From Escherichia phage AV123: a stretch of DNA of 64,000 nucleotides. The notes under the pieces were generated by a model, which saw only the letters and a list, made by a program, of their open reading frames with translations, had not been told where the DNA came from and did not search any database. The position numbers and the translations under genes are program-made. The stretch is taken from the sequence record OR352953.1. The stretch is one strand, 5' to 3'. This document shows positions 8,034 to 58,814 of the stretch, one piece after another. The stretch's first letter is position 1; each line of letters begins with the position of its first letter.

Positions 8034-10613
8034 CTAGTGACAACTGGCCCATGAGTTACCAACATCGTAACCAGCAGTGAGAGGTACATTAAGATTGTAA
8101 TACTCACCAGCTTTATTAACAGCGATAGATGCTAATTCTCCAGCACGACTGTAGGCTGTAAACCAACCACCTTTTGGAGACTCATGTACGTTAGCCCAAA
8201 TCTTGCCAGTACGTTTCTCTTCCTCTTCTTTCCAGGCATTAACTTTATCCAAACATTCTTTATCAATTTTCTTTTGTTCATCTGGATCATCAACTTGAGT
8301 CCAACCTAAAGATTCTTTAGAGAACCATTTAAAATGCACCAGATCACGAGTTACTTCAAGCTGTGCTTCATCGTGATATGCAATCATTTGTTGAACGAAT
8401 GACTTATTTTTCCAGTCATCAACAAAAAAGTCAACAGCTAATCCTTCTTCTTCGATAAGATCGTCGTAGATAACCATTGCTCTTTTTGCACAAATAACAC
8501 CACCACTCTGGAACAGAGAGTTAAGTATTGCGTGTGCAGATCGTGTAGGTACTTTTCTACCATCAATACCAAGAATGTATTTCTTACCTGTTTTAACCCA
8601 AAAATCATGCAGACGTTCTTTAAGAAGCGCAAGAGGTTTTGCAGCTTCCCAGAAAGCATCGTATACAAGCTGTCCTGTATACATATCACTACCTATAGTT
8701 TTTGCTACTTTTGCAGCTTGAGCACCATAAGTAATACCATACTTAACAGATTTAGCAGGGCTTCGTTCAAACTTACGACCAATAGTGTCAGAAATACGTC
8801 GAGCCATCATTGTATGAACATCATTAGGTTTTTCCAATAACAGAGCATTACAATATTCGTGTGGTTCCTGCTCGTACCGCCAACAGTAGTGTGATTCTAT
8901 TTTTGCCTCAAGAGAATCAAAGTCATAACCAATTTGGAAATATTTTGGAACTTCTACACCAAATAAGTTACGCATTTCATATCCGTACAGAGATGTTACA
9001 CGTGGGATATTTGCTACTAACCTATGTTTCATACGAGACGTAGCTGCATCACACGTTGCAGCAGGAGTTGGTATACGACCATCAGCCCTTACTGCCGCCA
9101 GATAACCTTTATCGTAATCCTCTTCATCTTCTTCCCAATCAGCACCACCCCCTAGGATAGAGTTTCTACGATGTTTATACGTAAGATACTGCACAATCTG
9201 CGTAGCATAAGGAAACTTTTCACCTAGTGCTTCCAAGTTAGGACAAATATCCTTCTCTTGCCCTTTTGTAAAGGAAGGGTTAGTAAGCACTTTAACACCA
9301 CGACCTTTAGCTTTAGCAATACGATCTCTTAGTTTCCATTCCAAAGTTTCTGGTGTGCACTCCAGATGATCACATCTGTCCTGGCAGAAGTTAGATGCTA
9401 ATGTTTGATCAACATAGTCACGAATAGCTTTCTCCATTTGTGCTTCATCTTTCTTAATCTTAGTGCCAGATTTAAGAGTGATATCTTTATCTTTATATTC
9501 AGATGGACTCCAACCTAAACCAACCAGCCAATTTTTAATATGCGTAGTGTCGTCTAAAGTAGCAGGTACTGTAGGATCACAAATAGGTTCCTCTGCTGGA
9601 ATAGGGAGTTTAAACTCTTTACCTAATGCAAATAACCACCAACCATCTTCTTTTTGTACAAGTTCACCAGAATGTTTCTCTGCAAACTTTACCATGTTAC
9701 TTGAAGGTTCACCATTCTTTTTAAACTGTAGTTTAGGTGGAATGAATGATTTCAAATAACCTTTAGTAGCAGGTTTAGGAGGTAGCACAGGTTCTGCCTC
9801 TAAACGACATGCTTCCATTCGAGCATCCAGATCACGAATATTATCTTCTGCTTGTTTCATATTGAAAGCAAAGCCACGGTGCTCTTGACGTGTAATAATA
9901 TCAGCTACACGTTGTTCTAAGTTAAATGGTTCAGACCACTTACTATAATCACCCCACTCTTCCATCAAATAACGGAACACTGCGGTGTTAGCTTTGTTAT
10001 CGTAAATACAGTAATACAGCATATCTGCTGCAAATGTTCTAAATCTTTCAGCTTCAGGAATGTTTTTTCTGAAATCAATTTTAACATCCCCTCCAGCCTT
10101 CTTAGATAACTCTGCCAGACTATGACCACCGAAGCGATCAGGGTTTAGTGTCTTACTTAAGATCATAGTATCACAAATTTCAATGTTACTATTACCCCAA
10201 GTATTGTACTTAACACTGTAGTTGAGTTTAAAAAATAATTTAATTGCCAGTAAGTCGAAGTTAATGATGTTGTGTCCAACTACTTTGGTAATTTTATAGT
10301 TTGAATTACCTTTAAATTTACCTGTTCCATTTACAAAATCAGGAAAATCTTTAAGAGGGAAATGGGTATATTCTAAATGCTCATATTCCTCCAGTCGGTA
10401 TTCATACTTTCCGTCAGTCTCAACATACGGACGACCATCGAAAAGATATTTATCACCATCATGGAAAGCAATAATCTCTCCAGTATCATGACTTTCGCAC
10501 ACAATACAGTGCATTGCAAAACTATCTTTTAAACGATATGGACTTGCCAAGTAATCTACACTTTCGTCATTAAGCAAGTTGTTACTTTCAATGTCGAAAG
10601 TAAAAGCTCCCAT
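8034..10613 (-). CDS. Family A DNA polymerase
   Basis: AGGAGGG RBS; motif A-like DFDSLEAKI, motif B-like RSPAKSVKYGITYG, motif C YHDE; 859 aa. Confidence 0.85.
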   Translation of the reverse strand: MGAFTFDIESNNLLNDESVDYLASPYRLKDSFAMHCIVCESHDTGEIIAFHDGDKYLFDGRPYVETDGKYEYRLEEYEHLEYTHFPLKDFPDFVNGTGKFKGNSNYKITKVVGHNIINFDLLAIKLFFKLNYSVKYNTWGNSNIEICDTMILSKTLNPDRFGGHSLAELSKKAGGDVKIDFRKNIPEAERFRTFAADMLYYCIYDNKANTAVFRYLMEEWGDYSKWSEPFNLEQRVADIITRQEHRGFAFNMKQAEDNIRDLDARMEACRLEAEPVLPPKPATKGYLKSFIPPKLQFKKNGEPSSNMVKFAEKHSGELVQKEDGWWLFALGKEFKLPIPAEEPICDPTVPATLDDTTHIKNWLVGLGWSPSEYKDKDITLKSGTKIKKDEAQMEKAIRDYVDQTLASNFCQDRCDHLECTPETLEWKLRDRIAKAKGRGVKVLTNPSFTKGQEKDICPNLEALGEKFPYATQIVQYLTYKHRRNSILGGGADWEEDEEDYDKGYLAAVRADGRIPTPAATCDAATSRMKHRLVANIPRVTSLYGYEMRNLFGVEVPKYFQIGYDFDSLEAKIESHYCWRYEQEPHEYCNALLLEKPNDVHTMMARRISDTIGRKFERSPAKSVKYGITYGAQAAKVAKTIGSDMYTGQLVYDAFWEAAKPLALLKERLHDFWVKTGKKYILGIDGRKVPTRSAHAILNSLFQSGGVICAKRAMVIYDDLIEEEGLAVDFFVDDWKNKSFVQQMIAYHDEAQLEVTRDLVHFKWFSKESLGWTQVDDPDEQKKIDKECLDKVNAWKEEEEKRTGKIWANVHESPKGGWFTAYSRAGELASIAVNKAGEYYNLNVPLTAGYDVGNSWASCH

Positions 10614-44419: not shown

Positions 44420-45409
44420 ATGACAGCACCAAAATCATGGGAACAATATAAAGAAGAGTGTATACCAATAGCAGAGAGTAAGCAAATCCAAATCTTAGGA
44501 TGGACGGGACAATGGAAAGGGGTCCACACAAAACTTGATTTGTTGTGCCATTGTGGTTATAAATGGGATACTACAAGTATTAACAGTTTTAAATGTGGTA
44601 GCGGTTGTCCACAATGTAGGAGGAAGAATATAAGGAAGTCACAAACAATGTCCGACGATCAACATATTGCAGATTTCTTTTCTACAGGGGAATTTAAGGA
44701 AGGCACTATCTTCACTAACACAGGAACACGGGGTAAAGGATGTAGGAATATTATCTGGATGGTTGAATGTCCTGTTTGCTCTCATGATGAATATGTTCAA
44801 GCAGGTGTTTGTGATGGTAAATTTTACTCTGAAGGAGATAACCTTAAACGAGGGTATATTCCGTGTCGTTGTGGGAACTATCGGTATACAGAAGACCAGA
44901 TCACCTATAGGGTAAAAAAGGAAGTAGAAGGGAAAGGGTATGTCTGGGTAGATTGGATTACCAAACCCTCTTCTATAGGTAAGTTTAAATATCTTTGTCT
45001 TGTGCATGGTGAGCAGATAGGGAGTGCTAATAATTTATTAAGCCTCGGTCGAGGTTGTCCTATGTGTGCTGGTCATAGTCAGCAGCAGTTATATATTAAT
45101 ATTGTTAAGGATGATAATATTATAGTTGCTCTTAAGTTTGGTATAGCTAAAGATAGTGATAGGCGATTAAACATTCAAAATAGCCGTAATCTGTTTTTTA
45201 TGGAACGTATTTGTTTATATGATTTTAGCACAGTGAAACAGTGTAAGGCTGCTGAAAGAGCTATAAAGAAAAAATTAAAAACTGGTATTTTAACAGCAAG
45301 AGAGTTGAAAGACGGTCATACAGAAACAGTAAGTGTTTCTGATTTGGAAAATCTTCAAAAAATTATTACACAATATGGTGGCAAGTTAGTATACAATAAG
45401 GAGGTGTAA
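44420..45409 (+). CDS. Multi-zinc-ribbon protein with C-terminal T5orf172 (GIY-YIG-like) type region
   Basis: At least four CxxC pairs; C-terminal LYINIVKDDNIIVALKFGIAKDSDRRL resembles T5orf172 core. Confidence 0.4.
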   Translation: MTAPKSWEQYKEECIPIAESKQIQILGWTGQWKGVHTKLDLLCHCGYKWDTTSINSFKCGSGCPQCRRKNIRKSQTMSDDQHIADFFSTGEFKEGTIFTNTGTRGKGCRNIIWMVECPVCSHDEYVQAGVCDGKFYSEGDNLKRGYIPCRCGNYRYTEDQITYRVKKEVEGKGYVWVDWITKPSSIGKFKYLCLVHGEQIGSANNLLSLGRGCPMCAGHSQQQLYINIVKDDNIIVALKFGIAKDSDRRLNIQNSRNLFFMERICLYDFSTVKQCKAAERAIKKKLKTGILTARELKDGHTETVSVSDLENLQKIITQYGGKLVYNKEV

Positions 45410-45961: not shown

Positions 45962-46177
45962 TATTTTGAAAATTTTTATTTTTATAAAAAGGGGTGTGGG
46001 TTTCATGTACGGAAATTCACCCTCTGAATAATATATTCAGAGTAAATATTATTTTGTACTCTGTTAATAAATTATTTAATTTGTTTGTTGGATTATGATA
46101 TCTGGTTTTTAAAAGGCATACTATCTCTTAACTACTATTTATAACAGAACAGTAAAATCATTTTTATAAAAAGGACA

Positions 46178-46390
46178 AAATTATTTAAAGTTTTTACAGA
46201 TTTTTGGATACAAATTTTGAAAATGAAAAGTTCAAGTTTGGTCAAAATTATTTAAAGTTTTTGTATGTATTTCTATCCAGATTTTGAAAATGAAAACTTC
46301 AATTTTTTAAAAATTCCCCAGTTTATTTAAAGTTTTTTTGCCTTTTTCCGTAGAAAAATCAAAAATGAAAAGTTCAATTTCGTGTTTTTA
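46178..46390. repeat. Three tandem direct repeats (66-78 bp units)
   Basis: AAATTATTTAAAGTTTTT...TTTTGAAAATGAAAAGTTCAA recurs at about 46178, 46244 and 46320. Confidence 0.6.
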
Positions 46391-46394
46391 TAGG

Positions 46395-46510
46395 TGTGTT
46401 AATGAGAATCATTTTCGTTTGTAAATGAGAATCATTATCATTTAACTATGTAAGTGATAATCATTCTCACTAAGAGAATGAGAATCATTAGCAAATGAGA
46501 ATTTTTCTCA
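46395..46510. promoter_or_regulatory. Cluster of Fur-box-like palindromes
   Basis: AATGAGAATCATT (46401), AATGAGAATCATTATCATT (46424-46442), GATAATCATTCTC, and perfect inverted repeat AATGAGAA-TTT-TTCTCATT (46492-46510). Confidence 0.5.
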
Positions 46511-46774
46511 TTTAGAGAATAACGCGCAGGGGTGGTGTTTGTCTCGCGCTCCCGTGTCCCCTCGCCATACAATAAGAATAGCATAACCAACAACAAAAGC
46601 AAGCGATTATTTTTATCTTTACATTTCTTTACAAATTTATTTTAGACGAGCTACCAGCGATCAACCTTCCAACCAGTGCCCCCTGGTATGTTAGCCCCGC
46701 CTTTACGCCGTGGGGATGGCGCTTCCTCTTCTGTATGTAAAACAGTATAAGCCCGATCCCTGGGCTTGTCAAGA

Positions 46775-57074: not shown

Positions 57075-57088
57075 ATAACATTTCAAAC

Positions 57089-57116
57089 AAGGGCGCTTAT
57101 TGCGCCCTTTCTTTTT
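57089..57116 (+). terminator. Hairpin terminator closing the island
   Basis: AAGGGCGCTTATTGCGCCCTTTCTTTTT. Confidence 0.7.
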
Positions 57117-57321
57117 ACCTAAATAAAGATGATAGCTTTTACCTATCAAAAACGTTCACCGAAAAAAGTGAATAGATCGCGGTATCGAGCTAATCAAGGA
57201 GCAGATGAACAACCATACCATGAAGATCATAAGGCGCTTACAACGTGTTTTAGACCGCTTATTTTTAATTTCTTCATGTAATTACCTGGCAAAAACAGCC
57301 TTTTTCTTGTCTTTCCTCTTA

Positions 57322-57397
57322 AATGATAATCATTCTTATTTATAGCTGATTATTTATGCAATAAATTGCATAATGCAATAATGAGAATCATTCTTAA
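57322..57397. promoter_or_regulatory. Fur-box-like sites flanking an 18-bp palindrome
   Basis: AATGATAATCATT at 57322-57334 (exact Fur-box core), TAATGAGAATCATTCTTA at 57378-57395, palindrome TATGCAATAAATTGCATA between them. Confidence 0.5.
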
Positions 57398-57689
57398 CTT
57401 AAGACCATCTAACCTATAAAATAATAAGTTATCTAACTAAATTAAAACTAATTATCTCACCTTTATTTATAACTTACTGTTACTATCTCATTGATAACAT
57501 TGTATTAAACAATAATAACTAATATAAATCATTACTAAGCTAAATATAATCTATCTAACCCTTAAAACTACAATTATAATCTATCGAATTGTTGCACAAA
57601 GTAACTATTAAATTGTTAGTAACATTACTAAATAATTCACATCCTATCTATTTATGATCTAATCTTTACCTTCCTATCTATTACTTAGA

Positions 57690-57737
57690 TAATCATTTCA
57701 TACAGTAACCATTTCATGTAGTAATCATTCCATACAA
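57690..57737. repeat. Three tandem 16-bp iteron-like repeats
   Basis: TAATCATTTCATACAG / TAACCATTTCATGTAG / TAATCATTCCATACAA. Confidence 0.55.
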
Positions 57738-58241
57738 TAACTATAACAAGAAATATAATTCGCAAGCGTATCATTAGCAGCCTATGCCGGACACATAGGC
57801 GGCTAATAATAACGCAACTACACACCCCACATAATAACCATCACCGATAGTTATTATTTGTGCTTATGTAGCTTGCAACAATTGCAAGCGCAACAATATA
57901 CTAGGGTATATTGTATCCCTTACATTGTTGCGGTGCGTTATTATTAGCTAATGTTTAGAACATTGGCTATAATATAAGCTATCCAATAATAAACATGGTG
58001 AATAATGACACTGATGATCATAATGCGCCACCCTCCAGGGGGCGCTATGTGAACACAAAGAAATCTTTCTTGTCAAGAAAAATATCACCATTATTGCGCA
58101 AAATTATTTATATCTGAATAGATGATTTTTCATACTATTGCCCCCTTGATTATTACCATTTGTTGAGCCTACTTTCTTAAAAGCGCAATAAAATAGAATT
58201 ATATTGATTTTTAGTCGGTTTTATAGTACAGAAAGTATGCA

Positions 58242-58455
58242 AATGATAATCATTATCAGCTATCTTCCACGGGTGGCACTATTTCACACCAGATCATTTC
58301 ATTTGGCAAGGTGTATATAGATGTTTAGACTTGCCAAGCCATTGATTTCCTTAGAATTTATCTGTTTTGTTGTGAGTAGTACCTTTCTTGCTTAGAAAAT
58401 AATCAAAAGTCTTATAAGTCATTGAATGATAATACAAATGATAATTATTCTCATT
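58242..58455. promoter_or_regulatory. Fur-box-like sites upstream of the 58.8-kb gene block
   Basis: AATGATAATCATTATC at 58242-58257 (16/16 to positions 4-19 of GATAATGATAATCATTATC); AATGATAATTATTCTCATT at 58437-58455. Confidence 0.5.
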
Positions 58456-58814
58456 GATATTTGAGGGGGACGGTCGGCAGAAATCGGGGGGTGCTGAAAA
58501 TCGCGTTAAGCACCTCTCGCAAGCGAGCAGTATTTTGCGGCAAGTTATTGATATTATTGACTTTACGCTTATGAAAAGGGGGTGTGTCGAAATAAATCGG
58601 GTATACCGGAAAATTTTTGTGGCATAGATATTTATTTGTCTATATTATGTACAAAGGGGTGTGTTAAAAATAATAGGTATATATAGAATAATTGATAGGG
58701 AATATCTATACTAATTCCTCCATTAATGATATTCCTATGCTACTGCTCTTGTAATAGATGAAAAGACGCTGTATGATGTGTGGCATGAAACGTAAACTTA
58801 TAAAGGAGTCTGAT

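Follow-up and report, generated by a model that had tools for sequence, protein, structure and literature searches.

Fur-box-like palindrome arrays in two noncoding regions of a phi92-like coliphage

Fur boxes are textbook bacterial operators, and phage-borne examples are known. The stx1 promoter of Shiga-toxin prophages is iron-regulated, and its Fur box ties a phage-carried function to host iron. Repeats of another kind are the iterons of the lambda origin, which are part of the initiator gene itself and serve as binding sites for the phage O protein.

Related palindromes are present in phage T5 (NC_005859), where TTTTTAAATGAGAATCATT and similar sequences occur five times at 9545-9725, within the annotated injection stop signal (9140-10149). 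They adjoin a DnaA box and GTGCGAATCCGACA repeats and lie near the estimated shear point of first-step transfer, allowing for an offset between T5 records that is put here at about 60 bp. The repeats of the injection stop are described in the T5 literature as unexplained, and in the part of that literature that was searched there is no mention of Fur. A further strong Fur-like site of T5 was identified at 228-252, which is 228 bp from the left genome end and inside the dmp gene.

The locus described here is a phased array of Fur-box-like palindromes in a coliphage, aligned by blastn to T5-like phages through the palindrome motifs. The feature is real and highly non-random, and its conservation runs deep. 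A literature search found no paper on conserved Fur-box arrays in the noncoding backbone or terminal repeat of virulent phages, and what is new is best described as putative Fur operators occurring as arrays in these two places.

The array, its genomic setting and its conservation

The window analysed comprises 64,000 nucleotides of Escherichia phage AV123 (OR352953.1). It belongs to a virulent phi92-like myovirus (Justusliebigvirus, Stephanstirmvirinae); phi92-like coliphages are 97-99% identical to the region, the closest being VEcB. Records of the MG0656xx series labelled 'Campylobacter phage' are 97.8% identical to this coliphage over the query, and their host label looks doubtful.

The array is located in a gene-free gap of 813 bp (45962-46774) flanked by convergent genes, gp223 on the left and a homologue of phi92 gp224 on the right (Table 1). 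The latter is a small conserved gene adjoining the same module in several genera; it gave no match in a Pfam search, and the Seunavirus sequence, when read directly, shows an unrelated ORF in its place. The earlier note had placed the palindromes at a left island border, an apt description, since they form the left edge of a block of small rightward genes, presumed to be early genes, that reaches the terminal repeat and continues across it. The distance from the array to the right end is about 11.6 kb, or 7.8% of the phi92 genome, where the entering end may be either one. Ribonucleotide reductase genes of class I and of class III are present in the phage genome. At 44420-45409 an ORF codes for a CapR plus T5orf172 endonuclease-like protein. 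Its phi92 counterpart is longer by about 200 nt, and the ORF may represent a mobile nuclease gene adjoining the noncoding region.

Five palindromes that follow the pattern AATGA(G/T)AAT-N-ATT(C/A)TCATT are arrayed in phase at 46398-46512. Four to five Fur-box-like copies in 115 bp had been counted before, and reading of the sequence gives five discrete sites, centred at about 46410, 46433, 46462, 46486 and 46503 (23, 29, 24 and 17 bp from centre to centre). The 13-mer AATGAGAATCATT is exact at 46401, 46424 and 46477. An agreement with 15 of 16 consensus positions, also claimed earlier, was recovered by setting the first 16 nt of AATGAGAATCATTATCATT against consensus positions 4-19. The perfect inverted repeat AATGAGAA-TTT-TTCTCATT is present as described, at 46494-46512, with its right end 2 nt beyond the 46510 given in the earlier note. 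The copies at 46401-46416 and 46474-46492 are not self-complementary. The phi92 counterpart of site 1 is GATGATAATCATTCTCATT, a better palindrome than that of the window; the core of site 2, AATGAGAATCATTAT, exactly reproduces the published iron box GATAATGAGAATCATTATT, presumably the aerobactin iucA operator; and site 5 is the sole copy retained in every related genus.

Table 1. Positions of the Fur-like sites and associated features in the window
Feature	Position	Strand	Remarks
NADAR-domain gene (gp223)	ends 45961	+	left flank of gap
Three AT-rich direct repeats, about 70 bp each (family D1)	46160-46380		directly left of array
Fur-like site 1, GTTAATGAGAATCATTTTC (core AATGAGAATCATT, 46401-46413)	46398-46416		20.9 bits; 3 mismatches to 19-bp consensus
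Fur-like site 2, two overlapping 19-mers with 6-bp offset (AATGAGAATCATTATCATT, 46424-46442)	46421-46445		20.8 and 13.8 bits
Fur-like site 3 (7-1-7 motif TGATAATCATTCTCA, 46455-46469)	46450-46469		15.2 bits; 0 mismatches to TGAnAATnATTnTCA
Fur-like site 4, GAGAATGAGAATCATTAGC	46474-46492		19.9 bits
Fur-like site 5, AATGAGAA-TTT-TTCTCATT and in-phase extra hexamer GAGAAT (46515-46520)	46494-46520
GC-rich noncoding elements A and B	46521-46735	+ (tentative)	directly right of array
Sigma-70-type promoter TTGACA-17-TATACT with covarying spacer hairpin	46744-46772	-	11/12 consensus positions
88-aa gene, phi92 gp224 homologue	47041-46775	-	right flank of gap
Two Fur-like sites	57319-57343, 57377-57395		15.1 and 17.7 bits; repeat family D1
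Counterpart of phi92 343-bp direct terminal repeat	58166-58508		phi92 repeat aligned to window
Fur-like site GCAAATGATAATCATTATC in terminal repeat	58239-58257		17/19 consensus positions; 22.9 bits
Fur-like site in terminal repeat	58434-58458		14.6 bits

Four or five further Fur-like sites were identified in a second noncoding region (57075-58757), starting at 57319, 57377, 58239 and 58434. Direct terminal repeats of 343 bp are annotated in the phi92 record (NC_023693) and measure 342 bp in phage BME3; since the phi92 repeat aligns to this region of the window, two strong sites lie at both ends of the virion DNA. Between them is a promoter, TTGGCA-17-TAGACT (TTGACA in phi92), at 58303-58331, and site 57377 abuts the -35 element of a weak predicted promoter. 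Two other repeats were observed. The sequence AAAGGGGTGTG is confined to the two large noncoding regions, at 45988, 58576 and 58653 (3 occurrences, 0.8 expected). The 16-bp tandem unit TAATCATTTCATACAG is present in three to four copies at 57690-57753 and, with many other short repeats, adjoins the terminal repeat; these repeats may be packaging signals.

One to six palindromes were identified at the same position of a conserved noncoding module in at least 13 genomes of Stephanstirmvirinae and Vequintavirinae, whose hosts are Escherichia, Klebsiella, Salmonella, Cronobacter, Enterobacter, Erwinia, Pectobacterium and Raoultella. The genomes with this architecture include tuntematon (Phapecoctavirus), Klebsiella phage KP13-26, W70 and A73; GEC_vB_MG, PVP-SE1, Csp-D17 and Enterobacter phage EC152 (Seunavirus); KaOmega and phiTE (Certrevirus); KB57 and Ro1 (Mydovirus); and an Erwinia phage. 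From left to right on the plus strand of the window the module is formed by three to four direct repeats of 60-75 bp, one to six palindromes, an in-phase 'nnGAAT', element A, an AT-rich stretch with CTTTACAnnTCTTTACAAA, the GC-rich element B and the hairpin between the -35 and -10 elements of the leftward promoter. In an alignment of 13 genomes, TGA.A...TTC..T and the downstream GAAT are invariant and the flanks vary. Individual sites turn over between genomes, and the commonest spacing in relatives is 29 bp. Seunaviruses contain only one or two copies at the locus, several genera keep one or two, and in an Aeromonas relative element B is kept and a nearby Fur-like site was not found. The direct repeats of other genera (three to four at the same position) are unrelated in sequence, several being rich in GATC. 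The start of the EC152 record, inside these repeats, was considered as a physical end and rejected, as the end of the record does not repeat it. When 5,426 E. coli genomes were searched with the array by blastn, the best E was about 1, a value inflated by the size of the database.

Elements A and B retain about 70-90% identity in other genera; in an Aeromonas phage the match shrinks to 37 nt. Their helices show compensatory changes (CCCC/GGGG to CCAA/TTGG in three genomes), and eight G-U pairs fit the plus strand versus three A-C pairs, a modest indication of the strand of the RNA. These features are a weak hint of a structured RNA that would run rightward, beginning right after the last palindrome. 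RNAalifold gave a weak consensus for the whole 300-nt module (-12.8 kcal/mol). Scanned against Rfam at E<=1, the stretch from 45 to 60 kb gave nothing but a spurious match to mir-1468, caused by the palindromes, and ARAGORN found no tRNA or tmRNA. A search of IMG/VR with the conserved 15-mer gave 48 matches, mostly due to chance, with only 5 true homologues. A possible H-type pseudoknot (CCCC/GGGG and CGCC/GGCG) and a duplicated CTTTACA motif were also observed at 46521-46772, and this module may be an undescribed phage RNA or origin element.

The leftward promoter (46772->46744) is the only strong one and points at the array, about 225-340 nt downstream; equivalent hexamers and the hairpin were identified in all genera examined. 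A promoter scan of both strands found no acceptable sigma-70 promoter overlapping the 46.4-kb sites. The 'nnGAAT' was considered as a -10 element and discarded, as it lacks a conserved -11 A; an additional Fur hexamer is the better reading. The scan of 46395-46512 for intrinsic terminators was negative: the stems are AT-rich and without a U-tract, and several copies are non-palindromic.

Fur-box identity of the palindromes

The position weight matrix for Fur was built from the 11 published iron boxes listed in PMC10665472, which themselves score 7-27 bits; the phage sites score 15-23 bits. Such scoring had been proposed in the earlier note, and the array sites, at 15-21 bits, fall within the range of the published boxes. 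In the window all seven matches of at least 15 bits are in the two noncoding regions (the 46.4-kb array and 57075-58757), and in the VEcB genome (148 kb) this is the case for six of eight. The array itself contains four such matches in about 140 bp, versus 0.002-0.005 per kb expected from Markov-1 backgrounds, and the enrichment exceeds 6,000-fold, AT-rich background included in both figures. The 13-mer, allowing up to two mismatches, occurs 19 times in the window versus 4.8 +/- 2.2 in shuffled sequences, and the 19-bp Fur consensus, allowing up to three, occurs five times versus 0.03 expected.

The phage sites agree with the Fur-box consensus at 16-17 of 19 positions and differ from TGAnAATnATTnTCA by zero or one mismatch. 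The core of the phage sites is identical to one of the Gram-negative iron boxes of the published list, GATAATGAGAATCATTATT. From 43 phage sites the consensus TAAATGA(G/T)AAT(C/G)ATT(C/A)TCATTTA was derived, in which the flanking A/T positions are conserved although they were not used in selecting the sites.

The perfect 19-mer AATGAGAATCATTCTCATT, the form found in relatives, was identified at no fewer than 120 loci in bacterial contigs representing one genome per species, including Massilia, Nitrosomonas, SAR86, Methylophilaceae, Polynucleobacter and Trichococcus. A callable ORF that begins no more than 300 nt from the 19-mer and is read away from it was available at 50 loci, and at 20 or more of these it belongs to an iron-related gene. 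The downstream genes comprise TonB-dependent receptors, FeoB, an FTR1 permease, a Fur-family regulator, Peripla_BP_2/FbpA-like proteins and an ABC ATPase. The count is a lower bound, ten hand-picked genes being confirmed by Pfam and the rest assigned to those ten by BLAST. AATGAGAATCATTCTCATT is a genuine Fur box, since FeoB, FTR1, TonB-dependent receptor and fur genes directly follow it. No Enterobacterales are among these genomes, so the link to E. coli depends on the list of published iron boxes. Taken as sequences, the identification of the phage palindromes as Fur boxes is strongly supported.

In viral contigs of IMG/VR the G-variant palindrome was found at 120 or more loci and the canonical AATGATAATCATTATCATT at 82, versus none for each of two composition-matched scrambled palindromes. 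The contigs with the identical 19-mer range from 27% to 59% GC. Two or more sites within 300 bp are present at 22 of 105 loci; within 600 bp of one contig (L321, 10770-11325) there are 12 or more canonical palindromes, and another (L130) has three copies 30 bp apart (1810-1888). The palindrome directly follows a TTGACA-17-TATAAT promoter in 9 of 69 occurrences, and in other viral contigs it occupies roughly positions +1 to +25 relative to consensus promoters. Uncultured contigs such as L102, L104, L133, L140 and L183 have large palindrome arrays, or a promoter and palindrome accompanied by 'cggcgcc'. The combination TTGACA-17-TATAAT, palindrome and 'cggcgcc' looks like a widespread operator arrangement. 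The over-representation of Fur palindromes in viral metagenomes suggests that such phage-borne Fur-like sites are a general phenomenon.

Possible functions of the arrays

Host Fur probably binds the palindromes, and it is probably the reason why selection keeps the sites. The preferred reading is that host-Fur sites, in phased arrays in two gene-free regions, act as an iron-dependent insulator or roadblock. This reading as a whole is held at even confidence, and the insulator or regulatory consequence is tentative, with somewhat less than an even share of the total. The phage would have placed predicted high-affinity sites as phased arrays at the left edge of the early block and in or beside the terminal repeat. 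In an iron-replete cell Fe2+-Fur dimers would occupy the inverted repeats of 19-21 bp, and the bound dimers would form a nucleoprotein block beside the conserved structured noncoding element. Most likely, this block would, depending on iron, insulate against or obstruct transcription starting at or entering the boundaries of the early region. The transcripts affected would be the leftward one from 46772->46744 and the putative rightward structured RNA after the last palindrome. Genome replication would add sites and draw Fur from the host regulon, as an unavoidable side effect or possibly as the main effect. Early transcription tied to iron status, proposed in the earlier note, is plausible.

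Several points count against this reading. Promoters overlapping the sites were not found, the flanking genes are convergent, and the array is at +225 to +340 from the only strong promoter. The strict position and the 29-bp phasing would equally suit an origin, packaging or DNA-entry element; the one or two copies of Seunavirus are too few for a sponge; and the Aeromonas relative has element B without a Fur-like site. As no good promoter overlaps the sites, the function is left between insulation or repression, titration and architecture. At the E. coli ftnA promoter Fur displaces H-NS, and an anti-silencing role of the array would be a further possibility.

Titration comes next and is unlikely as the main function. 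Here the replicating phage DNA would act as a Fur sponge, derepressing iron uptake and RyhB-type sparing and thus feeding the iron-dependent ribonucleotide reductases. The principle is that of the Fur titration assay, in which a multicopy Fur box derepresses chromosomal Fur-regulated genes. It is favoured by at least nine very strong sites per genome, mostly away from promoters and with duplication in the terminal repeat, by the class I and class III reductases of the phage and by the larger arrays of other viral contigs (such as the 12 or more palindromes of L321). However, a sponge needs neither a fixed position by a conserved element nor 29-bp phasing, several genera have only one or two copies at the locus, and infection may shut off host transcription.

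Rather unlikely, too, is an architectural cis-element for entry, packaging or replication, in which Fur or another protein would form a complex such as a T5-type injection stop or an iteron-type origin. The five copies of the motif in the T5 injection stop signal, near the shear point, argue for it. So do the position of the array (7.8% from the right end, whichever end enters first, versus 7.9% in T5) and the two sites inside the terminal repeat. As in iteron-type origins, phased sites (29 bp in relatives) are found beside AT-rich repeats (46160-46380); a strong promoter towards the array and a conserved structured element complete this picture. However, the terminal repeat measures 343 bp and not 10 kb, with the 46.4-kb array outside it. 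DnaA boxes are not enriched (26 near-matches to TTATCCACA in the window versus 22 expected, none in either noncoding region), and tblastn found no homologues of the T5 pre-early A1, A2 and dmp in the phage. A recognisable initiator gene does not adjoin the array, the neighbours in the Pfam search being NADAR gp223 and the 88-aa gp224, and no report of two-step entry in the phi92-like group was found in the literature. For rV5, the published changes of AT/GC skew tracked the direction of transcription and not an origin.

The earlier note had also raised operators for a phage-encoded protein, or iterons, with a specificity merely similar to that of Fur, and this is improbable. In its favour, the copies prefer GAGAAT over the canonical GATAAT (G 0.60 versus T 0.35 at position +/-4), the phasing is regular and the small conserved gp224 adjoins the module in several genera. 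The G variant is nevertheless a Fur box by its bacterial genomic context and figures among the published iron boxes; gp224 matches no Pfam family and gives way to an unrelated ORF in Seunavirus. The motif is common to unrelated phages (T5-like, rV5-like and many uncultured), with no detectable protein shared with the T5-like ones, and the identical 19-mer spans viral contigs of 27% to 59% GC. A Fur homologue was not found in the phage by tblastn (best E = 0.15). A universally conserved host protein would explain this distribution of the motif far better than a phage repressor.

Two further readings are very improbable, namely hairpins acting at the RNA level (for instance to terminate the leftward transcript) and an origin of the palindromes by chance in AT-rich DNA: some copies are perfect inverted repeats and the only Rfam match, a spurious microRNA precursor, is driven by the palindromes, but several copies are not self-complementary, the AT-rich stems lack a U-tract, the sequence is conserved beyond what pairing alone would require and the enrichment is above 6,000-fold even against an AT-rich background.

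Implications and comparison with known systems

Iron availability is a dominant variable in the gut and in infection, and phi92-, rV5- and T5-like phages are widely used in therapy collections. If Fur binds the palindromes, iron status would feed directly into the programme of these phages, and a replicating phage would upset the iron regulon of its host. The T5 injection-stop repeats, a question more than 50 years old, would gain a concrete hypothesis, and if the T5 connection holds the finding bears on this long-standing question. There is a small chance that Fur is the recruited host part of an end-proximal complex gating DNA entry or the early programme in both phi92/rV5-like myoviruses and T5-like siphoviruses, which are unrelated groups of large virulent phages of enterobacteria. 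If so, the T5 injection-stop repeats would be Fur boxes, and iron or Fur occupancy would influence the pause or restart of genome delivery or the first transcription.

The injection stop of T5 ('Repeat Region 3' of the left terminal repeat) resembles the array in being a large noncoding region with direct repeats and palindromes, about 8% from an end, and in sharing the TTTTTAAATGAGAATCATT / AATGAGATTGATTCTCATT motif, five times within 180 bp. T5 differs in its terminal repeat of about 10 kb, which carries the pre-early genes, in its paired DnaA boxes, in its nine GTGCGAATCCGACA repeats and in A1/A2, all four of which are absent from the phi92-like phage; the 46.4-kb array lies outside the 343-bp repeat of the latter. 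Two-step entry has been demonstrated only for T5.

The lambda origin iterons share with the array several inverted repeats of about 19 bp, a regular spacing and an AT-rich neighbour, whereas the array has no adjacent initiator gene and its sites are, by sequence, Fur boxes. The stx1 system consists of one operator at a defined promoter, that of a cargo gene carried by a temperate phage, and the present one of an array conserved in the noncoding backbone of a virulent phage. The bacterial Fur boxes (19-bp GATAATGATAATCATTATC; 7-1-7 TGATAATnATTATCA) are like the array in motif, in hexamer phasing and in overlapping sites offset by 6 bp. Unlike these, the phage sites lie between convergent genes and in the terminal repeat, where no overlap with a recognisable iron-gene promoter is seen, and form arrays of five to six discrete sites, 17-29 bp apart, in a virulent phage.
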